From Candidatus Moraniibacteriota bacterium (GTDB lineage Bacteria > Patescibacteriota > Minisyncoccia > Moranbacterales > UBA1568), in the NCBI GenBank assembly GCA_016182385.1, contig JACPGV010000002.1:253190-317189 (forward strand): a stretch of 64,000 bases of DNA. Direction: 5' to 3'. How positions within the stretch are numbered: the first letter of the stretch is position 1; each line of letters opens with the position of its first letter. Made by a program: the position numbers and the translations under genes. Under the pieces are notes generated by a model. The model was not told the DNA's origin. It worked only from the letters and a program-made list of their open reading frames with translations, and ran no database searches. Below are positions 1,993 through 60,487 of the stretch, one piece after another.

Positions 1993-2793
1993 TTATGCCC
2001 AGCGAAGAAAAAGGAAAATATACACCAAAATCATTACCCAAAAGCTAATGATAAAAAATTTTCGCCCTCGTTTTTTTGTGTTTTCATCGGTACAGATTTC
2101 TTTTGTAGTAAAACCGCAATCCTTGAAAAGAAAAATTGATTCATAGAGTCGCACAATGATAACCCAAGCGAGAAAAAGACTTACGAGCATACCGAGTCCG
2201 GGGAGAAGGGGATTGGCGAGTTCAGCGCTCGGGGTACCGCCTTGCTTGAGCCATTTCATCCAGCCTTGCCATTTCATTACGACGACATGGATAACTGTGA
2301 AGACGATGACGGCTCGTAGACCGAAGCGTTGAAGAAACCACCAGCGTTTTCCGTCCATGAGGTGGATAACTCTTTCGAGTGAAAGAACAAAAAGAAAAAC
2401 AAGGATAAGTGATCCTATAAGACCGGCGAGAAAAGGAATATTTTCAATAGTGAATTTTTCTTGGGGGAATTTTAAGGGAAGAAAGTGGTATGAAAGAATA
2501 CCGTGAGAGAGCGCGAGAAATCCGCCGATAATACCGATTTCTTTGCGATAACCGAGCCATTTATCAAAACGATCAAAATAACGAACAATTGGCCCGATAA
2601 GAAATGTAAGAGCGAGGAGGACGGTGCCGACGCCAATAATCACTTTATTGAAGACAAAAAATGTATCCGCACTTGGTGGGGCATCAAAAAGATATCCGCG
2701 ACGTATCAAAAGATAAGAACTAAAAAGTGTCAGAAGTATGGCGGCTAGAAAAATGGCGATAGCGTAATCTTTGAGACTGGATGGTTTATGCAT
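1993..2793 (-). CDS. polytopic membrane protein, ferric-reductase-like TM domain (MsrQ/YedZ-like) candidate
   Basis: About six TM helices with conserved His residues inside the TM helices (…ALSHGILSYHF…, …FTVIHVVVMKW…). Family assignment rests on the motif only. Confidence 0.35.
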   Translation of the reverse strand: MHKPSSLKDYAIAIFLAAILLTLFSSYLLIRRGYLFDAPPSADTFFVFNKVIIGVGTVLLALTFLIGPIVRYFDRFDKWLGYRKEIGIIGGFLALSHGILSYHFLPLKFPQEKFTIENIPFLAGLIGSLILVFLFVLSLERVIHLMDGKRWWFLQRFGLRAVIVFTVIHVVVMKWQGWMKWLKQGGTPSAELANPLLPGLGMLVSLFLAWVIIVRLYESIFLFKDCGFTTKEICTDENTKKRGRKFFIISFWVMILVYIFLFLRWA

Positions 2794-2801
2794 AAGTGTG
2801 T

Positions 2802-3119
2802 TTAACGAAATTCAAAAAGAATATTAGAGAAATTTTTAATGCGGTTTTGTTTGTCGATGTCGATACCCTCCTTTTTGTAAAGGCGGAGGCGTTCTTTGTG
2901 GTATTTGGCGTTACTCCAGATGCGTCCATTGGCGTAGACAATACGATGAAAAGGAATATCTTTGATGCCGTTTTCCCATGCCTTTCCTAAAATGCCAGTA
3001 ATGCTTCGAGAGGCAAGGGTTCCGCCTCCGGCCGCTTTGGCAATACGTCCATAGGTAGTGACTCGTCCCTTTGGAATTGATCGAGCGATACGTATAACTC
3101 GTTCACTGAAAGTAATCAT
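2802..3119 (-). CDS. MGMT-family DNA-binding domain protein (alkyltransferase-like; active-site Cys replaced by Phe: PFHRIV)
   Basis: …TTYGRIAKAAGGG…ASRSITGILGKAWENGIKDIPFHRIVYANGRIW matches the Ogt/Ada C-terminal domain, but the PCHR motif reads PFHR. Confidence 0.7.
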   Translation of the reverse strand: MITFSERVIRIARSIPKGRVTTYGRIAKAAGGGTLASRSITGILGKAWENGIKDIPFHRIVYANGRIWSNAKYHKERLRLYKKEGIDIDKQNRIKNFSNILFEFR

Positions 3120-3204
3120 ATTTTTTCTTTAGTATAACATTTTTTCGCACAGTTTTGTATTTGTATTAAAAATAAGAGTAATATGGTAAATAAAAAACTC
3201 CTTT

Positions 3205-3236
3205 TTTAAAGGAGGGGTTTTTGTTTAGACCGCAAT
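3205..3236. terminator. A-run / CTCCTTT-TTT-AAAGGAG hairpin / T-run; bidirectional terminator-like
   Basis: Sequence aaaaaaCTCCTTTtttAAAGGAGgggttttt, located downstream of the minus-strand tRNA-Gln. Confidence 0.3.
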
Positions 3237-3498
3237 ACGTTTTTGCGAATTAGGTGTTGGTTCTTTATAAAATCAGTTTTTATTTTTTTGACTTTGTAGT
3301 ACGTAGAAATGGTTTATGATTTTTACGAAACCATGACTAATCACAAAGGTGACTGGCCATGTCTTGAATCACCCTCTAGCCCGGCAAGCCGGTCACCCCA
3401 GACGGGTAAACAGATGTTTTCCCGACATTTTTCCCTTCAATCCCGTCCATCATGGTATAACTAAAAAAGCCCCTGAAGGGACCTTTCGTTTGTATATG

Positions 3499-3570
3499 CT
3501 GGGGAGGAAGGGATCGAACCTTCGTATGGAGGCTTCAAAGGCCCCTGCCTTACCGCTTGGCTACTCCCCA
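3499..3570 (-). tRNA. tRNA-Gln (anticodon UUG)
   Basis: The reverse complement is UGGGGAGUAGCCAAGCGGUAAGGCAGGGGCCUUUGAAGCCUCCAUACGAAGGUUCGAUCCCUUCCUCCCCAG. It has a cloverleaf with a 7-bp acceptor stem, the anticodon loop CUUUGAA and the T-loop UUCGAUC. The U1-A72 pair and GCCAAGCGGUAAGGC D-arm are typical of bacterial tRNA-Gln. CCA is not encoded. Confidence 0.9.
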
Positions 3571-3595
3571 AAATTTTTAGGATCTTGATAAAACG

Positions 3596-5188
3596 TCAAC
3601 TGTTTTCCGGAATTACTCGACCTCCGAGAAGTTCCATCGCTTGATTGACGAGCGGATGAGTAAGAAAGGAATCATTCTTTTTTTCTACTTTCTCGCCATC
3701 AAGGACGATGCGAACAGTTATTTGTGACGTAAGAATGGTATCAAAGGCTTTCTTCAGTGTCAATTGATTGGCTGGTTCTTCGAGGCGTTCTTTATGGAAA
3801 GAATATTTAACGGCAAGAGTAATGGTGTTTCCCTCTACGCGTATCGGGGAGGCTGTTGAAAGAGCGAGCGTGAGTGAGGCATTGAGATTTTTGGCAGTAT
3901 CGAGAATACGTTGCCATTTTTCTAAAATATCGGCAAGGGAGAGAGGGGTAATCTCTTTACTTTCTGTTGTAGAGAGAGTTTTCGTTTCCGGTGAGGATTG
4001 TTCTTTTTGTTCGTACGATGTTTCTGGCGAGGGAGGAATATTTTTTGTTTGTGAGGGAGAGGAAATATCTTGTTTTTTACCTGATGGTGGCGTTTCATGA
4101 TGAGAGGAGAGTGTTTTGACGATGGCTATTTGTAGAGGGAGTTCCGGAATGACGGCATTTTTTGCTGTAGCGTGAGCTGTTTGAAAATATTCGAGCATGC
4201 GGACAATCTCTTCCGGGGAAAAAATGGCGGCGAGCTCAAAAAGAGATGCTTTTTGTTCATCAGTAAGATGGTCAAGCGCGTCGAAAGCTTTTTCGGAGTT
4301 AGCCGATATGAGCAAGAGATCGCGCAAAGAGTAAAGGCACATCCCCGAAAAGAGGGCGAGATCAATACCGTTTTGGGAAAGCTTTGTGACAAAGCTCAGA
4401 CTTGGATAGAGAGCGTGTTTACTTAAGAGATGGAGGAGTTCAAGAACGCTTTCTTTTCTGGTGGTGCCCAGTATCTCGGTAACGTACTCTCCGGTGATTT
4501 TTTTATTTTCTAAGGAGGCAATTTGAGTGAGAAGCGATTCGGCATCACGCATACCGCCTTCGGCTGAAAGGGCAATCATTTCCAAGGCTTCTTTTTCAAT
4601 GGTCATTTTCTCCGCTTTGGCGATTTTTTCAAGTTTCCCCACGATGCTTTTTATGGAAAAACGAGCGAGATCAAATCGCTGACAACGAGAAATAACGGTG
4701 TCGGGTACTTTGTGAAGAGCGGTAGTGGCGAGGATAAAAACAACGTGAGCTGGTGGTTCCTCGAGTGTTTTTAAGAGCGCGTTGAAGGCACCAATAGAAA
4801 GCATATGCACCTCGTCGATGATGTATATTTTATGTGAGCCCAGCGTTGGGGGAAGCGTGACGGTTTCTCTTAGTTCGCGAATATTATCAACACCGGTATG
4901 AGAAGCGGCATCAATTTCGATAATATCAAGAGAGCGGTTTTCGCTCATAAGGACGCAGTGCTCGCACTTTCCGCATGGCTCAAAACCTTTTCGTTTTGAG
5001 CAGTTGATAGCTTTAGCAAAGAGTCGTGCTAAGGTTGTTTTTCCGGTACCGCGGGGACCGGTGAAAAGATAAGCTTGTCCGATACGTCCAAAACGTAAGG
5101 CATTCGTAAGGGTTTGGACAACGTGTTTTTGTTCGACGACATCAGAAAAGGTTTGTGGTCGGTATTTTCTGTAAAGGGTGGTGGACAT
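3596..5188 (-). CDS. dnaX: DNA polymerase III subunit gamma/tau
   Basis: MSTTLYRKYRPQTFSDVVEQKHVVQTLTNALRFGRIGQAYLFTGPRGTGKTTLARLFAKAINC… with the zinc module CGKCEHC. The ATG is at 5188; the upstream in-frame GTG at 5218 is less likely. Confidence 0.9.
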   Translation of the reverse strand: MSTTLYRKYRPQTFSDVVEQKHVVQTLTNALRFGRIGQAYLFTGPRGTGKTTLARLFAKAINCSKRKGFEPCGKCEHCVLMSENRSLDIIEIDAASHTGVDNIRELRETVTLPPTLGSHKIYIIDEVHMLSIGAFNALLKTLEEPPAHVVFILATTALHKVPDTVISRCQRFDLARFSIKSIVGKLEKIAKAEKMTIEKEALEMIALSAEGGMRDAESLLTQIASLENKKITGEYVTEILGTTRKESVLELLHLLSKHALYPSLSFVTKLSQNGIDLALFSGMCLYSLRDLLLISANSEKAFDALDHLTDEQKASLFELAAIFSPEEIVRMLEYFQTAHATAKNAVIPELPLQIAIVKTLSSHHETPPSGKKQDISSPSQTKNIPPSPETSYEQKEQSSPETKTLSTTESKEITPLSLADILEKWQRILDTAKNLNASLTLALSTASPIRVEGNTITLAVKYSFHKERLEEPANQLTLKKAFDTILTSQITVRIVLDGEKVEKKNDSFLTHPLVNQAMELLGGRVIPENS

Positions 5189-6938: not shown

Positions 6939-8003
6939 ATGTCAAAAGAAGAAAAGGCGTCAATGCGAAAAAACCTTCCAAATAAGGGGTTTTTTGTTTC
7001 GGCTATAGAGGATCTTTTGGGGGATATTTCTCCCCGTTCCTTGGCTATTGTAGAAGCTCGTTTTGGTATTGGGGGAGAGCGACCCAAAACACTTGAAGAA
7101 ATCGGGAAATTTTATCAGATTACGCGTGAGCGAGTACGACAGGTAGTGGTAAGCGTCATGGGGTTTCTTTCTCATCAAAGCACTCGACCGGTATTTGAAG
7201 AGGCTGCTTCACGAGTGCGTGTGTTATTGGAAAAGAACGATGGCATTGTAAAGTCGGAAATACTTCTTGAAACATTGGCGTCCGGTAGCGCCGCTGAACA
7301 CGGTGCGCTGCTTGCGTTCCTGGCAAGTTTTTCTTTTCTTGAGGAAAGCAAAGAAACAAGAGAGTGTGAAACGGTCTTTTTTTTGAAGGGATTTTCTTTT
7401 GATGATTGGAAGAAGGTAAAAAACGAAGCGAAAGAAATTTTGGAATCTGCGGGAACCACCCTTGATGAAAATGTGTTGTATCGTCTTTTTAAAGAGAAAA
7501 ATAAGATGATAGAAAAAGAAAAGTTTTTTCATTTTTTGAGCGTGTCCAAAGAGATTCGGCCGAATGTTTTTGGAAAATGGGGATTGTCAAATTGGAGCGA
7601 TATAAAGCCGCGCGGTACTCGTGAAAAGGCGCACCTTATTTTAAAGATGACCAAGAAACCTTTGCATTTTCGTGAGATTTCATTGCTCATTGATACGTAT
7701 GGTTTGCAGGGCGCGAAGAAGAAAAAGAGCCATCCTCAAACCGTTCATAACGAACTTATTAAAGATGAACGTTTCATTCTCGTCGGGCGAGGTATTTATG
7801 CGCTTGCCGAATGGGGATACACGCGTGGCACTGTCAAAGAAGTTTTGGAAGATATTTTCAAGCATTCTGAGAAACCATTGTCTCGGGAAGAGGTTTTGGT
7901 GGAGATTCTCAAAATTCGTCAAGTAAAAAAGTCGACAGTAATTATCAATCTCAATACATTTTTTCATCGCGTGGATAAAGACATGTATACATTGAAAAAA
8001 TAA
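6939..8003 (+). CDS. sigma-70 region-4-like helix-turn-helix DNA-binding protein
   Basis: The N-terminal region (…LAIVEARFGIGGERPKTLEEIGKFYQITRERVRQVVVSVMGFL) matches sigma70 region 4.2 / LuxR-type HTH. The remainder has no recognisable domain. This architecture is common in CPR genomes. Confidence 0.55.
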   Translation: MSKEEKASMRKNLPNKGFFVSAIEDLLGDISPRSLAIVEARFGIGGERPKTLEEIGKFYQITRERVRQVVVSVMGFLSHQSTRPVFEEAASRVRVLLEKNDGIVKSEILLETLASGSAAEHGALLAFLASFSFLEESKETRECETVFFLKGFSFDDWKKVKNEAKEILESAGTTLDENVLYRLFKEKNKMIEKEKFFHFLSVSKEIRPNVFGKWGLSNWSDIKPRGTREKAHLILKMTKKPLHFREISLLIDTYGLQGAKKKKSHPQTVHNELIKDERFILVGRGIYALAEWGYTRGTVKEVLEDIFKHSEKPLSREEVLVEILKIRQVKKSTVIINLNTFFHRVDKDMYTLKK

Positions 8004-19948: not shown

Positions 19949-21184
19949 ATGCGCCAATCACAACTCTTTACCAAAACATCAAAGACCTCACCCAAGGATG
20001 AGGTGAGTAAGAATGCCTTGCTTTTGATTCGCGCTGGTTATACATACAAGGTCATGCCAGGAGTGTATGCTTATACACCACTTGGGTTAATGGTGTTAGA
20101 GAAGATAAAACAGATTGTGCGTGAAGAGATGAATGCGATTGGTGGCCAGGAGCTTATTATGACCAATTTGCAGCGCAAAGACACTTGGGAAAGTACTGGT
20201 CGTTGGAGTGATGAAGCGGTAGATGTCTGGTTTAAAACCAAACTTCAAGATGGTACTGAGCTTGGACTCGCATGGAGTCATGAGGAAGCTATCATGGAAA
20301 TGATACAGCGTTTTGTTGAGAGCTATAAAGATCTTCCAGTGAGCGTATATCAGTTTCAGACTAAGCTGAGGAATGAATTGCGGGCTAAAAGCGGTATTAT
20401 GCGTGGGCGTGAATTTGTCATGAAAGATATGTACTCACTGCATGCTACAGAGGCTGATATGGATCAATACTATGATCAAGTCATTGAGGCCTATAAGAAA
20501 ATTTATGCACGTCTTGGTCTGGGAAATGAGACGTATATTACTTTTGCCAGTGGCGGCGCTTTTACCAAGTTTAGTCATGAATTTCAGACATTGTGTGATG
20601 CGGGTGAGGACGTGCTGTACGTCAATGCCGATAAGACAGTAGCAGTGAATGAAGAGGTACTTGATGATGCGAGTGCTCAGTTGGGGGTTGATAAAAACAC
20701 GCTGGTTCCGATGAAAAGCGCTGAGGTAGGAAATATATTTAAGTTTGGTACCGAGAAAAGTGACAAAATGCATATTGTTTATAAGGATAGAGAAGGAAAA
20801 CAGCAGCCTATATATCTTGCTTCGTATGGTATCGGTATTACTCGTGCGATGGGAGTAATTGTTGAAAAACTGGCCGATGAAAAAGGATTGGTGTGGCCGG
20901 AAAGCGTAGCGCCGTTTCGCGTGCATTTGTTGTCGCTTGATGCGAATGAGCAAGCGGAAGCAATATATGAATCATTGACACGGGCGGGAATTGAAACGAT
21001 TTATGATGATCGGAGCGTGAATGCCGGTGAGAAATTCGCCGATAGTGATTTGTTGGGCATTCCGTATCATGTGGTTATTGGTAAACGGTCGCTCGAATCA
21101 AAAAAGGCCGAGGTTAAACATCGACAAACGAAAAAAACGGAAGAAGTGTCTTTTTCAGAACTTATTGATTATTTGCAACCATAA
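19949..21184 (+). CDS. proS: proline--tRNA ligase (short form lacking INS editing domain)
   Basis: The N-terminus MRQSQLFTKTSKTSPKDEVSKNALLLIRAGY…LGLMVLEKIKQIVREEM matches ProRS. It has class II motifs and a C-terminal anticodon-binding region. Confidence 0.75.
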   Translation: MRQSQLFTKTSKTSPKDEVSKNALLLIRAGYTYKVMPGVYAYTPLGLMVLEKIKQIVREEMNAIGGQELIMTNLQRKDTWESTGRWSDEAVDVWFKTKLQDGTELGLAWSHEEAIMEMIQRFVESYKDLPVSVYQFQTKLRNELRAKSGIMRGREFVMKDMYSLHATEADMDQYYDQVIEAYKKIYARLGLGNETYITFASGGAFTKFSHEFQTLCDAGEDVLYVNADKTVAVNEEVLDDASAQLGVDKNTLVPMKSAEVGNIFKFGTEKSDKMHIVYKDREGKQQPIYLASYGIGITRAMGVIVEKLADEKGLVWPESVAPFRVHLLSLDANEQAEAIYESLTRAGIETIYDDRSVNAGEKFADSDLLGIPYHVVIGKRSLESKKAEVKHRQTKKTEEVSFSELIDYLQP

Positions 21185-21190
21185 ATTTTC

Positions 21191-21895
21191 ATGAAAGAGA
21201 TGTCACGAAAAGAACGTATTCTCATTTCTCTCGGAGGCTCGCTTATTGTTCCTGAGGCGATTGATTGGGAATTTGTAAAGTGTTTCAAGAAATTTATTAC
21301 GCAACATATTCGATTAGGATATTCCTTTATTGTGGTAACAGGTGGTGGTAAGACAGCAAGAAAATATATCGAGGCAGCTGCTAAGGTGACCAATATTACT
21401 GATGATGACAAGGATTGGTTGGGTATTCATGCAACACGTATGAATGCTCATTTTATTCGGACGGTTTTTCGTTCGTATGCTCATCCTCGCATCAATACCA
21501 ATCCTCATAATCTTGAAGATTTTTATGATGTAAAGGAGCCTTTGCTGGTGGCTGCGGGATGGCGACCTGGATGTTCTACCGACTACGATGCTGTTTTGTT
21601 AGGAAAGTATCTTGATGTGAAGCGTATTATCAATCTTTCCAATATTGATTATGTGTATGACAAGGATCCTCGTGAATATGCTGATGCCAAAAAGATTAAA
21701 AAAATCTCTTGGAAAAAGTTTCGTCGGTTGGTTGGTGAAGAGTGGAACCCGGGTATGAATGCACCTTTTGATCCTATTGCTTCAAAATTGGCTGAGGCCG
21801 AAGGTATGGAAGTAGCGATCCTCAATGGGGGAGACATGAAGAATGTAACTCGTTATATTTCCGGAGAAGCGTTTGTGGGAACGGTTATTCGATAA
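21191..21895 (+). CDS. pyrH: UMP kinase, archaeal-type (amino-acid-kinase fold)
   Basis: ILISLGGSLIVPEAIDWEFVK…FIVVTGGGKTARKYIEAA…WLGIHATRMNAHF…DKDPREYADAKKIKKISW closely resembles archaeal UMPK. Confidence 0.8.
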   Translation: MKEMSRKERILISLGGSLIVPEAIDWEFVKCFKKFITQHIRLGYSFIVVTGGGKTARKYIEAAAKVTNITDDDKDWLGIHATRMNAHFIRTVFRSYAHPRINTNPHNLEDFYDVKEPLLVAAGWRPGCSTDYDAVLLGKYLDVKRIINLSNIDYVYDKDPREYADAKKIKKISWKKFRRLVGEEWNPGMNAPFDPIASKLAEAEGMEVAILNGGDMKNVTRYISGEAFVGTVIR

Positions 21896-21901
21896 TCGCG
21901 T

Positions 21902-22858
21902 GTGGATATGGACGTGAAAAAAGTTTTGCTTGCTTCGCCACGAGGGTTTTGTGCTGGTGTGGCACGAGCGGTCAAGGCAGTGGAAGATACGCTCGCGATT
22001 TTTGGTGCACCGGTTTATGTGAAACATGAGATTGTGCATAATAAACATGTGGTCGCTTTACTTGAAGAGAAAGGAGCGAAAACGGTTGAAAACTTACCTG
22101 AAATTCCAGATGGCGCAGTGGTTGTTTTTTCGGCACACGGATCACCACCTGAACATTATATCGAAGCCAGGCGTCGTGGCATGCGACTCATCGATGCGAC
22201 GTGTCCACTTGTTACGAAAGTACATCTTGAGGTGCAGCGTTTTTTTAAAGAAGGATATGAAATTGTATATATTGGACACAGGGGTCATATTGAAGGTATC
22301 GGCGTCCGGGCGGAGGGCGGAGAAAGACACATACCGCTCGTTGAAACAATTGAAGATGTAGCTGCATTGGATATTGGTAATCCGGAAAAAGTCGTGTATC
22401 TCACCCAGACGACGCTTTCTGTTGACGAGACAGCCGAAGTTATTGTGGCTTTGAAGAAAAAATATCCACAGATTGTTGCGCCGCCGCTTGCGGATATTTG
22501 TTTTGCGACAACCAATCGTCAAAGTGCAGTGAAGGAACTTGCTCAGGCATCCGATCTTGTATTTATTCTCGGGTCAAAAACTTCATCCAATTCGACGCGG
22601 CTTATGGAGACGGCACGAGCCATTGGTACGAAGGCTTATCTTATTGATGATGTTTCTGACATTCAAGAAGAGTGGCTACTGGACGTGGCGACGGTCGGTG
22701 TTTCTGCCGGAGCGAGTGCGCCGGAACATGTCGTAGAGGATGTTGTTGCACATTTCGTCGATCACGGTGCAATCGTTGAGGATTTTGCGGTTCTTCCGGA
22801 AAATATGCGTTTTGCTGAGCCGATCGAATTGATGCATTTGCGACAGAATAGCGTATGA
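21902..22858 (+). CDS. ispH: 4-hydroxy-3-methylbut-2-enyl diphosphate reductase (IspH/LytB)
   Basis: LASPRGFCAGVARAV…HNKHVV…SAHGSPP…DATCPLVTKVH…TQTTLS…ICFATTNRQ. The three Cys ligands are present. The start is either the GTG at 21902 or the ATG at 21908. Confidence 0.9.
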   Translation: MDMDVKKVLLASPRGFCAGVARAVKAVEDTLAIFGAPVYVKHEIVHNKHVVALLEEKGAKTVENLPEIPDGAVVVFSAHGSPPEHYIEARRRGMRLIDATCPLVTKVHLEVQRFFKEGYEIVYIGHRGHIEGIGVRAEGGERHIPLVETIEDVAALDIGNPEKVVYLTQTTLSVDETAEVIVALKKKYPQIVAPPLADICFATTNRQSAVKELAQASDLVFILGSKTSSNSTRLMETARAIGTKAYLIDDVSDIQEEWLLDVATVGVSAGASAPEHVVEDVVAHFVDHGAIVEDFAVLPENMRFAEPIELMHLRQNSV

Positions 22859-23982
22859 ATATAGCTATCCAAGCGAGCGATCTTGATGCACAGAGAATTG
22901 ATGGAACGCGCGTATATCTTAAAAATCTTTTGGACCGTTTCGGAGCGCTCGCACCTGAGACGAAATTTTTATTATTTCACAAAGATGTTTTTAATCCGGC
23001 ACTTCTACCACCCGAGCGGTCGAATTATCGTCCAGTGAGTATCCCATTTCCATTTTCGTGGATGCAAACACGATTTGCTTTTGAAATATTTCGCGTAAAG
23101 CCGAATAAGCTTTTTCTGCCAATTCAGGCGTCGCCAATCTTTATTCCGAAAGAGGTGGAAGTAACAGCGACGATTCATGATTTGGCGTTCAAGAAATATC
23201 CGGAAACGTTTCCGAAAAGTCATCGCGCGAAGCTGGATTTTCTGCTTCGGACCGTCCTTTGTCGCGCTGATAAGCTCATCGCCGTATCCGCATCGACAAG
23301 GAAGGATATTCTGGAATATTTTCCAAATATTTTACCGGAAAAAGTACGTGTTATTCATCATGGTTTTGATGCCAAGTTTTTTTCCAAAAAATTTTCTGAA
23401 GGAGAGTTGAAAGAGATGCTTTCGCGGTATCGTTTGCATCCGAAAGGATATATTTTGTATGTGGGAGCGCTCCAGCCGCGGAAAAATCTCATTCGACTGA
23501 TTGAGGCATTCACGCTTGCGAAGCAAAGCGGCTCGCAAGAAATGAAACTCGTGCTCGCCGGCGAAGCAGCATGGCTTTCGGAGGGTATTTTTGGGGCACG
23601 TGAGAAAAGCTCGTATCGTGATGACATCATTTTTACTGATCGCGTATCATTTGATGATTTGCGCGTATTGTATCAAGGAGCGAAATTGTTCGCATTTCCG
23701 TCATTGTATGAAGGGTTTGGATTGCCAATTCTTGAAGCGTTCGCCTCTGGCGTTCCGGTGCTTACCGCGGACAACTCTAGTTTGCCGGAAGTTGGGGGAA
23801 ATGCCGCATTGTATTGCCAAGCGAAAAACGTTTTGGACATCGCTGAAAAACTTAAACAATTGTGGGGCGACGAAATGCTTCGTGCAGAATTAGTAAAACG
23901 TGGTAGTGAACGTTTGCAATATTTTTCGTGGGAGAGATGCGCGCAAGAGACTCTTGGCTGCATTTTCGATTCCACGCATTGA
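22855..23982 (+). CDS. glycosyltransferase family 4 (GT-B, group 1)
   Basis: A C-terminal EX7E-type region: SLYEGFGLPILEAFASGVPVLTADNSSLPEVGGNAA. Its ATG overlaps the ispH stop (ATGA). Confidence 0.8.
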   Translation: MNIAIQASDLDAQRIDGTRVYLKNLLDRFGALAPETKFLLFHKDVFNPALLPPERSNYRPVSIPFPFSWMQTRFAFEIFRVKPNKLFLPIQASPIFIPKEVEVTATIHDLAFKKYPETFPKSHRAKLDFLLRTVLCRADKLIAVSASTRKDILEYFPNILPEKVRVIHHGFDAKFFSKKFSEGELKEMLSRYRLHPKGYILYVGALQPRKNLIRLIEAFTLAKQSGSQEMKLVLAGEAAWLSEGIFGAREKSSYRDDIIFTDRVSFDDLRVLYQGAKLFAFPSLYEGFGLPILEAFASGVPVLTADNSSLPEVGGNAALYCQAKNVLDIAEKLKQLWGDEMLRAELVKRGSERLQYFSWERCAQETLGCIFDSTH

Positions 23983-24051
23983 TACCGTGGATGTTTATAA
24001 TACAAAAATTTTTTCGCTTTTTTTATTAAACTATTTAGAGAAAAATACTCA

Positions 24052-24085
24052 CTATACTTTTCTTGCAATTGCAAGAAAAGTATAG
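24052..24085. repeat. perfect 34-bp palindrome ctatacttttcttgcaattgcaagaaaagtatag (copy 1; extends to 36 bp)
   Basis: Exact self-complementarity seen in the sequence. An identical copy lies at 24794-24827. Confidence 0.8.
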
Positions 24086-24138
24086 TTCACTTAAAGAAAC
24101 AAAAGATAAAATCTCGAGAGTTATAAAAAGGTAAACGT

Positions 24139-24771
24139 ATGAAAAGAAAAAAAATGTCAATGGAAAATATGAGGAAAAGAATAGAGGGTTTTCTTTTTTC
24201 TGATAGCCCTTCTGTGACAGTGACAAAATTTCTTTTGGTGTTTATTGCTATTGGCGGAGTAGCTGTTGTTGGAGCTACTCTTCCGGGTCTTGTAAAAACG
24301 ATTGGTCATTTTTCTCGTATGTCAAAGAAAAGAAAGGAGTATTCGAAAGAGAAAATCTCGGCCTCGTTTGAGTATTTGAAGAAAAAACAGTTTATTAAAA
24401 TAATTAAAGAGAAAAATGGAAAGGTACAGGTAAAGTTGACTAATAAGGGAAAGTCGCGGTTAACGGAGTATTCTCTTGATATGTTGGAAATTCGAAAGCC
24501 GAAACAGTGGGATGGTAAGTGGAGGATTTTTATGTTTGATATTCCAGCGCACCCGAAAATATATCATTCCGCACGTGAGGCTCTACGAAGCAAGATAAAG
24601 AAACTCGGATTTTATCAAATTCAGAAAAGTGTTTGGATTTATCCGTATGAGTGCGAGGATGAGATTCTCTTTATTGCCGAGATGTTCAAGGTACAGAAAT
24701 ATATAGAGATTTTGACTGTTGAAAAATTATTGCATGAAAATTTTGTTCGCGAAAAATTCCCATTTTTATAA
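24139..24771 (+). CDS. membrane-anchored protein with PaaX-family/Cas2-VapD-fold-like C-terminal domain
   Basis: An N-terminal TM helix (FLLVFIAIGGVAVVGATL), then …WDGKWRIFMFDIPAHPKIYHSAREALRSKIKKLGFYQIQKSVWIYPYECEDEI. The pattern WxGxW…FDIP…R..LR..L…GF..LQxSVW is the one I associate with the PaaX middle domain. That assignment is from memory, not from a search. Confidence 0.45.
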   Translation: MKRKKMSMENMRKRIEGFLFSDSPSVTVTKFLLVFIAIGGVAVVGATLPGLVKTIGHFSRMSKKRKEYSKEKISASFEYLKKKQFIKIIKEKNGKVQVKLTNKGKSRLTEYSLDMLEIRKPKQWDGKWRIFMFDIPAHPKIYHSAREALRSKIKKLGFYQIQKSVWIYPYECEDEILFIAEMFKVQKYIEILTVEKLLHENFVREKFPFL

Positions 24772-24793
24772 ATTTTCTGTAAACTATATAAAA

Positions 24794-24827
24794 CTATACT
24801 TTTCTTGCAATTGCAAGAAAAGTATAG
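24794..24827. repeat. perfect 34-bp palindrome, copy 2 (extends to 40 bp, aaactatac…gtatagttt)
   Basis: Identical to the copy at 24052-24085. It sits 23 nt after the stop of the 24139 gene. Confidence 0.8.
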
Positions 24828-25054
24828 TTTGATGATAGGGTGAGGTAGCATGGATAGGGTGCGGTTATTTTTTTGGAGTTGGATGAAACAATAGTGTAAT
24901 TTCCTGATCACATGTTTTATTTTTTGTGATTTTCCGGTTTTATACCCTCCTGCATTCAACCTGTATTGAACCTACATTCAACATTCTATTGCAATAAAGT
25001 GTTTTTTGTGTCAGAATGTATTCGCCGTGTAGCGGCTTTTTTGTTTGTAGAGAT

Positions 25055-26512
25055 ATGGCAAAAGAAAACATAGTATTGAGATTTGAGAATGTATCCTTTG
25101 AGTATGGACACAAAAAACCTATTCTTGATGAGGTGAGTTTTAGCGTGCGTAGTGGAATGAAGGTCACCTTGATGGGACAGAATGGGGCAGGAAAAAGCTC
25201 GCTGTTCAAGTTGATTACCGGTGAAACGCAACCGCAGCATGGGCACATCTCTATTGATTCCTTGGCGACGGTCGCGATTGCACGACAGGTCATTCCACGA
25301 GACGAGCTTGATTTTTCCGTGAAAGAGTTTTTTGTAAAACATTTTTCCGGAAAAGAGTGGGAGTTGGAAATGAATATTCGTGAGGTTTTGGAGATTGTTA
25401 ATATGCCCATGCCACCCCTTGAAAAGAAAATAAGGGAATTTTCTGGTGGACAGCAAGCGCGACTCCTTCTTGCTTCAGCGCTTATTCAGGATCCGGATAT
25501 TTTGCTTCTTGATGAACCGACGAACAATCTGGATTATGCAGGCATTGAACATTTGACGCAGTTTCTTGTGAATTATGAAAAAACTGTTTTAGTCATTTCT
25601 CATGACGCCGAATTTTTGAATGCTTTTACTCATGGAGTGTTGTATTTGGACGTTTTCACTCATAAAATTGAGCAGTACGCCGGTGATTATTATGATGTTG
25701 TTGAAGAAATCAAACGCCGTATTGAAAAAGAGCAAAGTGAAAATGTTCGTTTGGAACGCACTATTCGCGAAAAAAAGGATCAGTCGAATGTTTTTGCCAA
25801 CAAAGGTGGAAAGTTGCGCGCCGTAGCAAAACGAATGCGTGATCTCGCTGAAGAGCTTGAGGAAAATAAAGTGGATATTCGCCGTGAGGATAAAACGCTT
25901 TCACCGTTTACGATAGAGTGCGAAGATATTATTGGCCGAATCGTGCGCATTAAAACTGTGTCACTGGTGACGTCTCTGGGTCCGGCTATAAAGCACGTAG
26001 ATTTGGATTTGAAGCGTAATACGCACCTTCTTGTCTCTGGACCGAATGGCATTGGAAAAAGTACGTTTCTTGAAGCGCTTGCACGTGGTGATGAAGAGCG
26101 TGTCACTATTGCCCCGGGAGTCAAAGTGGGATATTATCGACAAGATTTTTCTACGCTTGATTTTCATAAAACAGTCGCCGAAACACTTCTTCCGGTAACG
26201 TCGGACGGAAGCATGGAAACGGTGTATCGTACGACAGCACGTTTTCTTTTACCAGCTGAGCTTGTGCAGAATAAAATAGAGAGCCTCTCAGAGGGACAGA
26301 AGGGGCTTTTAATGTTCGCGTATTTGTTTTTACAAAAACCGGAGTTGCTCATTCTTGATGAGCCGACCAACCATATCAATTTTCGTCATTTGCCGGTGAT
26401 CGCGGAAGCGCTCGACAAATACAAAGGCACAATGATCTTTGTTTCACATGTTCCGGGTTTCGTTGCTGATATCCGTATTGACGAAGTGCTTGATTTGGAA
26501 TCGCTTGTTTAG
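25055..26512 (+). CDS. ABC-F family ATPase (tandem ABC domains, no TMD)
   Basis: Two Walker A motifs (GQNGAGKSSL and GPNGIGKST) and two signature motifs (FSGGQQARL and LSEGQKGLL) with an inter-domain linker. A start at MAKENIVLRF (25055) is preferred over the upstream ATG at 25016. Confidence 0.85.
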   Translation: MAKENIVLRFENVSFEYGHKKPILDEVSFSVRSGMKVTLMGQNGAGKSSLFKLITGETQPQHGHISIDSLATVAIARQVIPRDELDFSVKEFFVKHFSGKEWELEMNIREVLEIVNMPMPPLEKKIREFSGGQQARLLLASALIQDPDILLLDEPTNNLDYAGIEHLTQFLVNYEKTVLVISHDAEFLNAFTHGVLYLDVFTHKIEQYAGDYYDVVEEIKRRIEKEQSENVRLERTIREKKDQSNVFANKGGKLRAVAKRMRDLAEELEENKVDIRREDKTLSPFTIECEDIIGRIVRIKTVSLVTSLGPAIKHVDLDLKRNTHLLVSGPNGIGKSTFLEALARGDEERVTIAPGVKVGYYRQDFSTLDFHKTVAETLLPVTSDGSMETVYRTTARFLLPAELVQNKIESLSEGQKGLLMFAYLFLQKPELLILDEPTNHINFRHLPVIAEALDKYKGTMIFVSHVPGFVADIRIDEVLDLESLV

Positions 26513-26928
26513 TATTTGACGGGTGTTTTCTGAAGGAGATATCCTGCCAAGAAAAATCCGCCGATAAGAAGAAAAATAATAATGGGAGGAAATTTAAAAA
26601 GAGATACACTCAGGAGTGCGATAGCAAGAAGAAGTCCGAAGGAAAAGAGCGGACTTTTTTTATTGAATGAAAAGGGGAAAGAGAGATGAAGAAAACGTCC
26701 GAGAGCGGCGAGAAAGAAAGAAAAAAAGACAAGAGCGGAGAGCATTTTTGTAAGACTGAAACGTGCGGTGACAAATGTGGGAAGCAGTGTTTCGATGGTA
26801 AAGAGTCCTATGAATCCGAGGTATCCTAAGAGGAGTGCTTCCGCAAGAAGAGCATAGCAGACGGCGAGGAGGCCATTTTCTTTAGCGCGGAGAAGTTTTT
26901 TGTGTATGGTTTGAGAGAGGTGTTTCAT
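26509..26928 (-). CDS. small hypothetical membrane protein (4 TM)
   Basis: A hydrophobic ORF overlapping its neighbours by 4 nt at both ends. Confidence 0.35.
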   Translation of the reverse strand: MKHLSQTIHKKLLRAKENGLLAVCYALLAEALLLGYLGFIGLFTIETLLPTFVTARFSLTKMLSALVFFSFFLAALGRFLHLSFPFSFNKKSPLFSFGLLLAIALLSVSLFKFPPIIIFLLIGGFFLAGYLLQKTPVKY

Positions 26929-28106
26929 AGTCGTTCGGATTGAGAAGAGGTAAGGCCAAATCGCGCGAGCAGGCGTTCTTTGATTTGTGAAAGAACAAAC
27001 AACATATTTTCTTTGTTTTTATTGGTGACAAAAGAAAGTGAAAGGGTGTTGATATCTAGAGCGGAAGAAGTATTGGTGATATGTATTTCGAAATCATTTC
27101 CGGGAGCGTCGCGTAGCGCTTCGAGCGAAGCGTGACAGGAGAAAGAGCGGCCAAAAAAAGAGCGTGTCGGAAGACACGTGGTTGCCACGGTACTCATACG
27201 CGAGGAGGCATTGATCGGGGACTGTTTGCTGAGAAGAAAATCACGGTACGTTGTGTCGATAAGAGAGCGCTTCGTGTTGTGGTCAACGAGAAAATAAGTT
27301 TTTGTTTCTTGATCAAAGAAAAGCGTTCCATCGGGATGAATGTCACCTAAAAGGAAAATTTTTCCGCGTTTGTAAATACCAATTTCTTCTTCACTTGATG
27401 GAATAACGTTTTTGAAATCATAGCCGAGCGCAAGAAAAATATCGGCGCTACCGATAGGGCGCATTTCGGTTTCACTGACAATGACGAATACCCCATCAGC
27501 GAAAGAGACGAGAGACCCAACACGAAAGCCGATCCATTCTTCGGAGCGTGGATAGGAAGCAAGGAATGAAGGCGAAACTTCTGTGGCAAAGTGTTTTGGG
27601 TATCGTGAAAGGTAGGCATTTTCACTGATGAAAGGATAGAGCGTATTGTCACGAAGGGCATAATAGGCAGTATCAGAATAGTAGAGAATTTCTTTGGGAA
27701 AAGATTGTATAGACATGCCGTGAGGAAGAAAAAAACCGCGATAGGAACGATAGAGGGAGACGTTGAATGGATTATCAGAATCAGGGATGGCAGATTTTTT
27801 TTCGAGGGAAAAACTGATAAGAGCGGTGGAAAAATTTCCAACGACACCAACATCGGCAATGAGGGTCCCATTTTTTTCCAGTTGCCCGTTTTTTCTTGTG
27901 ACGTGTTCTGGTGAGCGTGGATGGAGAAGATTGTTTTTACTGGAATCAGGCGCACGGAAATCAAAAGAGAATGTCAGTGTTGGAAACAATACTCGCAGGG
28001 AGAATGCAACAATGATTATACTGGTGACAATATAAAGGAGTATACGAGCAAAACGATAGGTTGATTGCCAGTGTGGCGCGATAACGACAGAGGAAAAAGG
28101 GTTCAT
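26925..28106 (-). CDS. hypothetical secreted/membrane-anchored protein (393 aa)
   Basis: An N-terminal signal anchor (ILLYIVTSIIIVAFSL). It is co-directional and overlapping with the GT-C-like gene. No known domain. Confidence 0.4.
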   Translation of the reverse strand: MNPFSSVVIAPHWQSTYRFARILLYIVTSIIIVAFSLRVLFPTLTFSFDFRAPDSSKNNLLHPRSPEHVTRKNGQLEKNGTLIADVGVVGNFSTALISFSLEKKSAIPDSDNPFNVSLYRSYRGFFLPHGMSIQSFPKEILYYSDTAYYALRDNTLYPFISENAYLSRYPKHFATEVSPSFLASYPRSEEWIGFRVGSLVSFADGVFVIVSETEMRPIGSADIFLALGYDFKNVIPSSEEEIGIYKRGKIFLLGDIHPDGTLFFDQETKTYFLVDHNTKRSLIDTTYRDFLLSKQSPINASSRMSTVATTCLPTRSFFGRSFSCHASLEALRDAPGNDFEIHITNTSSALDINTLSLSFVTNKNKENMLFVLSQIKERLLARFGLTSSQSERL

Positions 28107-28112
28107 AGTATT

Positions 28113-29930
28113 TTAGTGAATCTCGAAAAGAATAGTATTTGTTTCTTGGAGGATCGGTTCTGGTAGTTTGAGAGCAGAACCATCTTCGAGCGAGAGCGAC
28201 TCAAGACCTTCACGAATGAAGAGAATGGATTTTTTGAAAAGTAAACGTTCGCCAAAAATAGACATAAAGCGCTCCTGATCACTTTCGGGAACGAGAAGAT
28301 AGGTGTGTTCGTATGGCGTGAGATTGAGTTTTTCCAGATCATGGGGATTGAAAAAATAGACGGCATTCTTATTGAAGAGATATTGCATTGGACCGGTAAT
28401 CATGGAAAATCCATCGCCGGTCACGTGCCGATCGATGAGAATAAGATCGCGATCAGTGAAGACTTGGCTGAGAGCGGCTGTTTGTTCGATAAGTGACCGA
28501 TTTTCAGAAAAAGTGACGGCTCTTTTCCATGCTGGATACTGAAAGGAAATAAGTAAGAGAAAGATGATGGTGACAGAGAGAAGGCGATGGCCGGTTGGTC
28601 GAGTTATGGGAAAAATTTTTTCTTTCGCGAAGAGAAGGGCAATACCGATGATACTCGAAAAGAGAAGTGTTGGAAAAAGAGAAAAAAGATAGCGCCGAAG
28701 CATCCAAGGATGGTCAAGAGAAATATTTGGATCGAAAAGATACAGAAACGTTGGAAGTGCTATGGCCACCGGAAGGAGCGCCATGAAACGTCGTTCTTTG
28801 ATGATGATGAGTATACCGAAAAGCCCCATGGTAAAGAGTGTGAGGAGTCCATAGAGAAAGAAGACGGATCCGAGAGGAAACGATGTCTCGATCATCTCCA
28901 CACTATTGGCGATATTTCCTTGCTCCGCTTGACCGAGAAACTTCAGGAGTGCCTTGCCAATCATTTTATAATAGGGAAGATTGATGAAAAAATCCCTCAG
29001 AAAAAAGAACCCGAAAATAATACCAGGAAAAACAAGGCTTTTAAAGGGGGAACTTTTCCAAAGAGATATGGCGTGCGTACTGAAAAAAAGTAGAAGGAGA
29101 GAGAGACCGAGAAAGAGGAAGCCTTCAATGCGGGTAAAAGCAAAAAGTCCCCCGGTAAGGAGAATGCTGAAATAGTAAAGACGTTTTCCTTCCCGGAAAA
29201 ATAAAAGAAGATTAAAAACGAGAAATGTGAATAGAAAAAGTGCAAGATTTTCGCTGAGGGTCATTTTGGCAAACCAGAGAGGAAGAAAAGAGAACAGAGA
29301 AACAAGTAGGCCGGCACCGGCATAAAACGGACAAACAAAAAGACGCAAAAGATGATAGAGCGTGATGAAAAAAAGAAAAAGAAGAAGCGCGTTGCTTATG
29401 TTTGGGCCGATGAATCCAAAGACAGAAACGAAGGCGGCGAGCCACGCAGTGTAACCAAGAGGAAACTGTGTCACGAGGTATCCTCCGTCCGTGTAAGCGA
29501 AACCGGGAAAATTGAGTGCTGTACCTTCCCCGTAGATTTCAAAGAAGCTGATCGTGGTTTTATTGGTAAATGCCAGTTCATTGTTCTGAGCGAGACGGAA
29601 GGCGGCTTCGGCGATAGATCCTTGGTCGCGGCCGGAAAAGACGGTTGGTTCCGAAGAAAGGGCGATAAAAATAGCAAAACAGAGAGAGAGAAAAAAAACA
29701 ACGCGAATGTCGTTTTTCGCATGCCAAAGAAGTTTGATACCGATGAGGAGAGGTAATGCCCCGCCTATGAGGAGAGCAAAAACAAGAAGAGGAAAAAAGA
29801 AAAAGCCGCTTATGGCGAGGGAGAGCGTGAACCATCCAAACACCACAAAAAAAAGTCCGAAGAGGACGAAGGAAGTATGATTTTTTTCTGAAAAAGAGGG
29901 AAAAGTGATCATGAGTACAGTATAACGCAA
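28113..29930 (-). CDS. large polytopic membrane protein, GT-C-fold glycosyltransferase-like (ArnT/PMT-type) candidate
   Basis: Ten or more TM helices in the N-terminal 450 aa plus a soluble C-terminal domain. The topology matches GT39/GT83. Assignment is by architecture only. Confidence 0.4.
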   Translation of the reverse strand: MRYTVLMITFPSFSEKNHTSFVLFGLFFVVFGWFTLSLAISGFFFFPLLVFALLIGGALPLLIGIKLLWHAKNDIRVVFFLSLCFAIFIALSSEPTVFSGRDQGSIAEAAFRLAQNNELAFTNKTTISFFEIYGEGTALNFPGFAYTDGGYLVTQFPLGYTAWLAAFVSVFGFIGPNISNALLLFLFFITLYHLLRLFVCPFYAGAGLLVSLFSFLPLWFAKMTLSENLALFLFTFLVFNLLLFFREGKRLYYFSILLTGGLFAFTRIEGFLFLGLSLLLLFFSTHAISLWKSSPFKSLVFPGIIFGFFFLRDFFINLPYYKMIGKALLKFLGQAEQGNIANSVEMIETSFPLGSVFFLYGLLTLFTMGLFGILIIIKERRFMALLPVAIALPTFLYLFDPNISLDHPWMLRRYLFSLFPTLLFSSIIGIALLFAKEKIFPITRPTGHRLLSVTIIFLLLISFQYPAWKRAVTFSENRSLIEQTAALSQVFTDRDLILIDRHVTGDGFSMITGPMQYLFNKNAVYFFNPHDLEKLNLTPYEHTYLLVPESDQERFMSIFGERLLFKKSILFIREGLESLSLEDGSALKLPEPILQETNTILFEIH

Positions 29931-59983: not shown

Positions 59984-60487
59984 TTTTTTTCCAAAACAGA
60001 TCGGATCATTACGCGACCGAGCACTTCATTTGCGTATGCGTTTGTGACGCAGAAGACAAGTGTTTTATTGAGACAAGGCTTTAAAATAACTTGTTGCGAA
60101 ACGGCCACAAGCCTGTTGTGGCACAAATGAAGTGCTGGGAGTGAGGAAAGTCCGGACACTCGCCGATTTTGTCTGCTGAGAATGGAAATATTCTTTTTTG
60201 AGCAGACAAAATTGGCAGCAAGTAGCGGGTAATTCCCGCACGCCGCGAGGCGCGAGGTGCGAACAGAGATGCCATGTGACGAAAGAAACATGGGCGCTTC
60301 TGAGAAATTGGAAGCGTAGTCCAGCAGACGCTGGGGTGAAACAGCCAAATCCTTACTTGAGTGCAAGATCGTGCTCCGCGAGGAGAGAATCGCCAGGATC
60401 TTTGCGGTAACGCAAGGGCAAGAGAAATGATGATCATTTGCCGCAAGGTAAATACAGAATCCGGCTTACAGATCTGTTTTGGAAAAA
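59984..60487 (+). ncRNA. rnpB: RNase P RNA, bacterial type A
   Basis: The P4 halves are GAGGAAAGUCCGGAC (about 60144) and ACAGAAUCCGGCUUA (about 60454). A 17-bp P1 pairs UUUUUCCAAAACAGAUC at 59986-60002 with GAUCUGUUUUGGAAAAA at 60471-60487. An additional helix pairs GAGCACUUCAUUUG with CAAAUGAAGUGCU near the 5' end. Confidence 0.85.

Follow-up and report, generated by a model that had tools for sequence, protein, structure and literature searches.

Long palindromes bracketing the gene for a membrane-anchored PaaX-like protein in Moranbacteria as its candidate DNA sites

The PaaX-type protein TTHA0973 of Thermus binds palindromic operators (PMC6651687). This report concerns a gene for a PaaX-like protein of 210 aa that lies between two identical long palindromes in 64,000 nt of DNA from a Candidatus Moraniibacteriota bacterium (GenBank assembly GCA_016182385.1, contig JACPGV010000002.1, positions 253,190 to 317,189 of the forward strand); this whole stretch is referred to as the window, and positions are given within it. 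We put at roughly 55% the probability that, as the sequence comparisons below suggest, the dyad-symmetric palindromes serve as cognate DNA sites for the enclosed protein and that gene and sites form one self-contained cassette. Like PaaX, the protein has a winged helix followed by a Cas2-fold middle domain, and its top structural match is PaaX itself (8a39); it differs in lacking the PaaX_C ligand domain and the paa gene context, in carrying an N-terminal anchor and in having perfect palindromes of 34-48 bp on both sides of its gene.

The repetitive extragenic palindrome (REP) sequences and the genes of their REP-associated tyrosine transposases (RAYTs) are similar in that one gene lies between two palindromic repeats, the repeat is lineage-specific and scattered intergenically, and presence is patchy. 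A gene flanked by the repeat was found in the window and at loci L011, L012, L098, L099 and L107, with dispersed intergenic solo copies in the metagenome-assembled genome (MAG) MFSB01 (L numbers designate fetched loci and P numbers family proteins). The protein is, however, unrelated to RAYT and has no HUH/Y1 transposase-like domain, and membership in that system was therefore rejected; catalysis is only hypothesised here. The sites are perfect palindromes with zero loop, whereas REPs are imperfect hairpins with a conserved 5' tetranucleotide, and the copy number is ~12 as opposed to tens to hundreds. Cas2 and VapD share the fold, and the beta1-alpha1-beta2 motifs (hhhhFDIP ... QKSVW) align with Cas2, but the protein falls below the cas2 cut-off, has no CRISPR array in the window and is fused to a winged helix and an anchor. 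As in ParB/parS, ParR/parC and Noc/NBS, palindromic sites adjoin the gene of the putative binder and recur a few times per genome, and Noc is also membrane-associated; here the protein has an unrelated fold and lacks a ParA partner, and related genomes do not share its putative sites. The two identical 34-bp sites with inverted arms recall lox/FRT, with a symmetric centre that would permit both inversion and deletion and with an inverted cassette at L107, but neither the cassette nor its surroundings encode a recombinase, and a single site is not left behind at the empty loci. Insertion sequence (IS) elements and miniature inverted-repeat transposable elements were rejected because solo copies have no direct duplication around them and the protein no transposase domain, and integron cassettes (attC) because the sites are perfect palindromes and no integrase-like neighbour gene recurs. 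In its mode of action the system would come closest to a winged-helix repressor that is autoregulated through a dyad operator, and in its genomic behaviour it comes closest to REP/RAYT.

Palindromes at the gene and across its family

The 34-nt perfect palindrome CTATACTTTTCTTGCAATTGCAAGAAAAGTATAG is present at 24052-24085 and 24794-24827, and the two copies bracket the open reading frame (ORF) of the 210-aa protein (Table 1), which is recorded in identical form as HYV45_01560 on a 318-kb contig of a Candidatus Moranbacteria MAG. The flanking A/T pairs extend the perfect symmetry to 36 bp upstream and 40 bp downstream. The upstream palindrome ends 52 nt before the ATG, and the stop codon is followed after 19 nt by the 40-bp form (22 nt to the 34-nt copy). 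No further copy was found in the window with up to 3 mismatches allowed, and no match occurred in 100 dinucleotide-preserving shuffles. An imperfect inverted repeat at 60162-60216, with a 3-nt loop between 26-nt arms that are 81% complementary, bears no sequence relation to the palindromes.

Table 1. Coordinates of features at the palindrome-bracketed gene (window positions)
Feature	Position	Strand	Remarks
Upstream palindrome, putative operator	24051..24086	.	36-bp perfect, zero loop; 26-bp core ACTTTTCTTGCAA-TTGCAAGAAAAGT kept in five other MAGs
Putative promoter, predicted from sequence	24069..24097	+	-35-like TTGCAA 24069-24074 in right arm, 17-nt spacer, weak -10-like TAAAGA 24092-24097
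Gene for 210-aa protein	24139..24771	+	K/R-rich tail, FLxSDSxSAT motif, anchor, winged-helix part, Cas2-fold domain; no PaaX_C
Hydrophobic anchor, residues 31-52 (FLLVFIAIGGVAVVGATLPGLV)	24229..24294	+	Conserved G39, G45, A46, P49, G50
Winged-helix part	24337..24483	+	Recognition helix 70-82, beta-hairpin wing 86-100, helix 102-115
Cas2-fold (PaaX_M) domain, beta-alpha-beta-beta-alpha-beta	24502..24729	+	Invariant W124, D125, W128, D134, Q162, K163, S164, W166
Downstream palindrome	24791..24830	.	40-bp perfect, zero loop; contains the 34-nt sequence of the upstream copy; 19 nt past stop
Segment extra in window	23983..24989	.	Absent from glycosyltransferase/ABC-F spacer of four syntenic relatives; cassette plus 68 nt left and 159 nt right

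The protein family comprises 4,281 representatives of 50%-identity clusters at E <= 0.001 (2,450 at E <= 1e-10), mostly 180-235 aa in length. Named members are nearly all from Moranbacteria, Patescibacteria or Parcubacteria and are currently annotated only as 'hypothetical' or 'PaaX-like'; nothing was found in the literature searched on the family, or on PaaX-like proteins together with bacteria of the candidate phyla radiation (CPR) and palindromes. A metagenome scan with the family alignment produced 80 homologous loci (35-61% identity), and the locus statistics given here cover 85 loci. Family members sit in unrelated gene contexts: no neighbour gene is conserved, any one neighbour family being common to no more than 7 of the 85 loci, and neither a recurring integrase-like gene nor a ParA-like partner was found in the neighbourhoods. 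The family was not found in plasmids (PLSDB), gave one distant match in viral contigs (IMG/VR) and nothing meaningful in PHROGs, and a phage or plasmid origin was rejected on these outcomes. The gene upstream of the P0016 cassette in the H32 genome (L011, 1258-3744) encodes an 828-aa VirD4/TrwB-like coupling protein, and the P0002 and P0003 cassettes (L098, L099) adjoin a type IV secretion system pilin gene cluster; a loose link to DNA-transfer genes at these three loci is possible, and is absent in the window.

Long perfect palindromes accompany many family genes, 7-108 nt before the start, from -9 to about +50 nt from the stop, or at both places, and their sequence differs lineage by lineage. 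Zero-loop palindromes were counted at a score of at least 14 in the family-gene flanks and in the remaining 420 kb of the same 85 loci; they occur at 1.28/kb in the flanks and at 0.014/kb elsewhere, and are thus ~90 times denser beside family genes. Strong inverted repeats are without a loop in 42 of 50 cases near family genes as against 11 of 50 elsewhere, where the remainder have loops of 1-8 nt, as in ordinary hairpins. Two zero-loop perfect palindromes of 54 bp (L051, 985-1038) and 38 bp (L073, 7198-7235) lie away from a family gene; they have different centres (AGCGCT, AACGTT) and may belong to another system.

A shared plan was apparent when 38 distinct palindromes were numbered outward from the dyad. 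All 38 have A or T (W) at position 1, 37 have G at position 3, 27 have C at position 4 and 25 have A at position 5, with A/T at positions 8-10; read from the dyad, the family half-site is W-N-G-C-A-N-N-A-W-W. Arm complementarity is 87-100% out to position 17 and ~34% by position 20, and the arms are about 17-19 nt long. In the outer arms, at positions 11-18, no sequence is conserved and the sites of one genome differ from each other, yet complementarity stays at about 90-100%. Over 63 aligned sites, 92.5% of cells are paired, compared with 37-44% in controls whose partners were displaced by 1-3 columns; these controls score 0.12-0.17 for covariation and the unshifted alignment 0.892, double-sided changes are found in all 20 pairs, and G·U pairs are nearly absent. 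The self-complementary centre and the lack of wobble pairs point to dyad symmetry in duplex DNA and not to an RNA fold.

The type of palindrome follows the sequence of the recognition helix and wing. Orthologues at L099 and L098 (72-74% identity) have ...TTTTTCCGCAATTGCGGAAAAA... and ...TTTTATCGCAATTGCGATAAAA... on both sides of the gene; each arm differs from that of the window at 3 positions, and the four half-sites of each genome have changed in concert. The geometry of gene and palindromes is kept, with the same or related palindromes, by orthologues at 59-74% identity (L011, L012, L098, L099 and L107). Paralogues within one MAG have unlike palindromes, as with P0001 and P0060 in the MAG of the window and P0016 and P0034 in the H32 genome; the palindrome site of a paralogue reads TCTTACTATTTTCGCGATTGCGTAAATAGTAAGA.

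The enclosed protein and its promoter region

The 210-aa protein matches Pfam PaaX_M (PF20803) over residues 122-197 (E 2.4e-20, 72.8 bits with a cut-off of 24) and, weakly, HTH_34 over residues 67-113; these were the only Pfam matches, and no HUH, DDE, tyrosine- or serine-recombinase signature was detected. PaaX_C gave no match even at E <= 10, and the protein stops 13 aa past PaaX_M. The NCBIfam equivalog model for PaaX, the phenylacetate repressor (TIGR02277), is matched in part (residues 89-187) at 23.5 bits with E 3.5e-05, against a cut-off of 264.55, and that for cas2 (TIGR01573) at 17.6 bits over residues 129-167, against a cut-off of 24.5. PADLOC returned only weak Cas2 matches, including Cas2_II on residues 127-168, and membership in a defence system was rejected on that outcome. 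No CRISPR repeat array was found in the 64 kb, and with the Cas2 models below their cut-offs both Cas2 identity and a link to CRISPR were discarded. There are no paa genes among the ORFs called in 20000-29000, and the neighbours encode a glycosyltransferase and an ABC-F protein. The protein is neither a true PaaX nor a Cas2.

An AlphaFold2 model built with 95 homologues has a mean predicted local distance difference test score (pLDDT) of 73, with block means of 84-92 over the Cas2-fold domain (about 121-210). It predicts the helices and wing listed in Table 1, followed by beta-alpha-beta-beta-alpha-beta over residues 128-194. Foldseek against the PDB placed E. coli PaaX 8a39 first (203 alignment columns), Cas2 structures at ranks 2-19 and PadR/MarR-type regulators lower. 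A sequence search of the PDB gave no significant match, so that the similarity to PaaX and Cas2 is at the level of the fold only. In the model a recognition helix and wing (residues about 67-115) are retained between the anchor and the Cas2-fold domain. The conserved columns contain no H-hydrophobic-H motif.

The hydrophobic segment at residues 31-52 is 22 aa long, with a mean Kyte-Doolittle value of 2.2 and zero charged residues across the 95 homologues. Within 15 residues of it, K+R averages 4.3 on the C-side and 1.2 on the N-side (C > N in 90/95), an excess that favours a cytoplasmic location for the DNA-binding part.

The initial annotation, which was made from the sequence alone, had described two identical perfect palindromes around the gene, a PaaX_M/Cas2-fold protein with a hydrophobic N-terminal anchor and palindromes without a canonical U-tract, all of which the analysis bears out. 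Its view that a transmembrane helix takes the place of the winged helix needs correction, given the weak HTH_34 match, the AlphaFold2 model and the structural matches to PaaX, PadR and MarR. The profile searches that it proposed were positive for PaaX_M and negative for PaaX_C and cas2.

The upstream palindrome probably overlaps the promoter of the gene that it precedes; the pattern on which this rests holds in relatives and is weaker in the window. In the CAATTG group, 5 of 6 loci have, 17 nt past the TTGCxx of the right arm, a -10 hexamer that matches at 5/6 positions (AATAAT, AATAAT, TAAAAT, AATAAT, TATACT). The ABC-F gene has TTGCAA-17-CAGAAT upstream of it in the window and in relatives, and TTGCAA therefore looks like a local -35 element. 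Upstream palindromes also lie between divergent genes (e.g. L098, L099) and occur regardless of how the upstream gene is oriented, so that they are not terminators of that gene. A - strand promoter reading out of the downstream copy (TTGCAA-16-TATAGT) was rejected, its pattern not being kept in L011 or L012.

The start of the ABC-F gene is the ATG at 25055 and not 25016. At 24990-25054 its TTGCAA-17-CAGAAT is followed by a GC-stem hairpin with a T-tract (25024-25046) that ends just before this ATG, and the same is seen in L104-L108. The arrangement looks like a leader or attenuator, and such elements are known for ABC-F resistance and regulatory genes.

Presence, absence and inversion of the cassette

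In the window the gene order is ProS, UMP kinase, IspH, glycosyltransferase, cassette, ABC-F and three reverse-strand genes; relatives keep the order from ProS to ABC-F and run on into ClpB. At L104, whose ABC-F protein is 87% identical to that of the window and its sister in a neighbour-joining tree, and likewise at L105 and L106, the glycosyltransferase and ABC-F genes are separated by only 66-74 nt and there is no cassette. L111 also lacks the cassette and has a spacer of 375 nt with no called gene. At L107 (79%) the same spacer holds the family member P0034 on the opposite strand, flanked by TCTTACTTTTTACGCAATTGCGTAAAAAGTAAGA and TCTTACTATTTATGCAATTGCATAAATAGTAAGA; there are two differences per arm, each of them compensated. 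The unit of gene and palindromes thus occupies no fixed place in the chromosome and has been gained, lost and inverted among related Moranbacteria. The N-terminal third of this P0034-type gene (L107, 3818-4435) does not have the FLxSDS...hydrophobic motif in one frame, which could reflect a frameshift, a pseudogene or an assembly error.

The segment that is extra in the window includes 68 nt to the left and 159 nt to the right of the cassette, neither of which has a homologue in any fetched locus. The right-hand 159 nt (24831-24989) include a short hairpin, ATCACA...TGTGAT, and, at about 24946-24985, CATTCAAC/TATTGAAC in three spaced copies. Two other indels were seen between contigs of the fetched loci. 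Relative to L108 and L110, which have an identical ABC-F protein, L109 has an insertion at 2723-3760 in which a 288-aa ORF is enclosed by ~27-bp inverted repeats (GGTTTAATTAAAAATATGTAAGGAT...) and a duplicated GAAAAATT, and it looks like an IS element. L099 and L100, which carry an identical family protein, differ by a 187-nt indel (L100, about 6950-7140); it sits upstream of nusA, and a relation to the palindromes was rejected.

When one genome per species was searched for exact matches to the 22-nt core of the window palindrome, five other MAGs yielded 18 sites. Of these, 17 also share the whole 26-nt core ACTTTTCTTGCAATTGCAAGAAAAGT, and the site at L009 has one substitution at its edge. The outer arms vary (ATAGTAC, ATATTAC, TCTTAC and CCTTAC; CTATAC in the window), and the opposite arm matches in nearly every case. 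At L011 and L012, in two MAGs, two sites bracket an orthologue in the geometry of the window. In MFSB01 the exact core is found 12 times, spread over 10 contigs, and 9 of these sites are not at a family gene; by crude gene calls all are intergenic, before starts, just past stops or between convergent genes, and the neighbouring genes are functionally unrelated (NUDIX, YqeY, UvrB, DedA, glycosyltransferase, LysM-CHAP). Solo sites of the five MAGs have no orthologous neighbour in common apart from the family gene, and a conserved regulon was rejected because their neighbours are functionally mixed and not orthologous between MAGs. The window spacer orthologous to the L009 site is palindrome-free, and the solo copies have no target-site (direct) duplication around them. 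Point mutation cannot have produced the same 26-nt core at non-homologous places, and the palindrome has therefore been copied around; the solo copies of MFSB01 bear the outer-arm variants of both cassette ends.

A third copy at L012 (1044-1077, site 1060) lies 295 nt from the downstream copy of the cassette. It is a hybrid, with the left arm of the upstream copy (ATATTAC) and the right arm of the downstream copy (GTACTAC), and could be a recombination product of the two. Two short contigs labelled uncultured Bdellovibrionales (CAYGEA01; L001, L014) carry the Moranbacteria-type core and are probably mis-binned.

Alternative explanations and significance

The arrangement that we favour would operate as follows. 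A DNA-binding protein of ~210 aa would be held at the membrane by its 22-aa hydrophobic segment and would most likely dimerise through the Cas2-fold domain, as in PaaX. The dimer would read the inner part of the palindrome, which in this lineage would be the 26-bp core given in Table 1. Binding at the upstream site should repress the gene itself, since this copy overlaps the -35 element of the gene's own putative promoter, and the downstream copy past the stop would close the unit as a second operator or as a roadblock or insulator. The unit would be mobile on an evolutionary scale, with the palindrome copied in some genomes to other intergenic places as solo copies.

Catalysis might be added to this binding, the palindromes then marking the ends of a mobile element or serving as its recognition sites, and the protein being a nuclease or recombinase that mobilises it by acting with its Cas2 fold on hairpins or cruciforms, in true functional analogy to RAYT/REP or IS200/IS605. 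The identical solo cores in non-orthologous intergenic contexts, to which they must have been copied, would be explained in this way, as would a cassette that is present, absent or inverted at one syntenic site, outer arms that pair whatever their sequence (as expected of a hairpin or cruciform substrate), the solo copies of MFSB01 with the variants of both ends and the hybrid at site 1060 of L012. The imperfect flanking copies at L091 and L102 are mutually inverted like terminal inverted repeats, and the invariant D134 stands directly past beta-1, a position that we take to be that of the catalytic Asp of Cas2. We nevertheless regard this explanation as unlikely: recombinase and transposase signatures are lacking, the solo copies have no target-site duplication, copy numbers are low, the copies at L096 are direct and not inverted, empty sites bear no footprint, the family is absent from plasmids and nearly so from viral contigs, a membrane anchor would be odd for a transposase, and the Cas2-fold domain of PaaX is regarded as non-catalytic. 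Binding could alternatively be architectural, the anchored protein tethering the chromosome to the membrane at a few sites in a centromere-like or Noc/RacA-like manner. The union of a membrane anchor and a DNA-binding domain in one protein fits such a role, as do the ~12 intergenic sites of MFSB01 with no coherent functional regulon, and sites flanking the gene of their own binder are typical of partition systems. It seems improbable all the same, given solo sites that are not conserved between related genomes, a window with no site in 64 kb beyond the pair that flanks the gene, genomes in which two or more paralogues each have a different site, a cassette that is dispensable in four close relatives, and neighbourhoods with no ParA-like partner.

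The palindromes could also act as RNA hairpins, as bidirectional terminators, insulators or stem-loops that stabilise mRNA, with no specific protein binding. Very high stability is predicted for the hairpins (-21.9 to -27.4 kcal/mol, z -6 to -11), and the downstream copy lies directly past the stop across the family. Several copies have AAA...TTT at their ends, and some of the solo sites (L009, L010) are located between converging genes. A simple terminator scan scored the two window copies as terminator-like when read on the - strand, which has no gene there to be terminated. Where the next gene is co-directional, a downstream palindrome is present somewhat more often (22/45 versus 5/20 otherwise), a difference that is not significant. 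A hairpin would have no need of the self-complementary centre found near family genes, however, nor would it account for the near absence of G·U pairs, for a near-dyad sequence that is conserved across lineages and identical over 26 nt in five MAGs, or for upstream copies that lie between divergent genes and overlap a -35 element. The + strand reads TTCACTT and TTTGATG after the two copies, with no proper T-tract at either, and a T-tract is not a consistent feature of the family; the general terminator of the genome would have to be far commoner than this motif, and an ordinary hairpin with a GC stem and a T-tract is found nearby at 25024-25046. Classification as an intrinsic (Rho-independent) terminator was rejected on the A/T-rich stem (5 G-C pairs per 16-18 counted pairs), the absence of a U-tract, the self-complementary zero loop and the lack of G·U pairs, and Rfam over the whole window gave one tRNA above the gathering threshold and nothing at the palindromes. 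We therefore hold an RNA function to be very doubtful. Among the options that the initial annotation had listed, a plain terminator loses ground, while operator sites and a mobile cassette gain from the family-wide association, the co-variation by lineage, the overlap with the -35 element and the presence, absence and inversion of the unit. A common genome-wide terminator with no link to the family, which that annotation had named as the outcome that would speak against it, does not fit 2 copies in 64 kb, 12 exact-core sites in one MAG and a tight family linkage. Its proposed search of related genomes located the 18 core sites and two MAGs in which they bracket an orthologue, and relatives without the cassette were found in L104, L105, L106 and L111.

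Several observations weigh against the reading of the palindromes as cognate sites of the enclosed protein. Roughly a third of the family loci have no palindrome by the detector used; at least two of these, L096 and L102, are only apparent negatives that have imperfect copies. The copies that flank P0004 and P0060 are asymmetric at the centre and were overlooked by the detector. A dimer footprint of ~26 bp offers no explanation for the pairing of the outer arms, which calls for an added assumption, either extrusion of a hairpin or cruciform or templated correction of quasi-palindromes. The AlphaFold2 model is of low confidence at residues 1-65, and the whole N-terminal tail is rich in K/R (8.3 per sequence), which makes the predicted membrane topology tentative. 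The -10 element of the window itself is weak (TAAAGA, 3/6), and the role of the downstream copy is a proposal only. No leftover palindrome or footprint was found at the four empty syntenic sites, and the extra segment is larger than the palindrome-bounded unit; these genomes therefore do not differ by simple excision between the two copies. Binding of the sites, the dimer, the cytoplasmic position of the DNA-binding part, autorepression and the spread of copies are steps that we infer from sequence.

To our knowledge, CPR/Patescibacteria have very few recognisable regulators, and their gene control and DNA organisation are almost unstudied. If the palindromes are indeed the sites of the enclosed protein, the likely DNA target can be read straight from the genome because it brackets the gene in each lineage, which would provide dozens of natural pairs of protein and site for work on the recognition code and a test case for membrane-tethered DNA binding in ultra-small cells. 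A more speculative suggestion, which we hold with little confidence, is that the membrane-anchored Cas2-fold/winged-helix protein recognises lineage-specific palindromes as hairpins or cruciforms and also propagates or processes them, as a new class of element in CPR/Patescibacteria. In function it would then correspond to REP/RAYT, though without an HUH protein, and in fold it would be a free-standing relative of Cas2 that acts on palindromic DNA in a setting other than CRISPR; if the protein also moves the palindromes, the family would represent a new kind of repeat-propagating system built on that fold.

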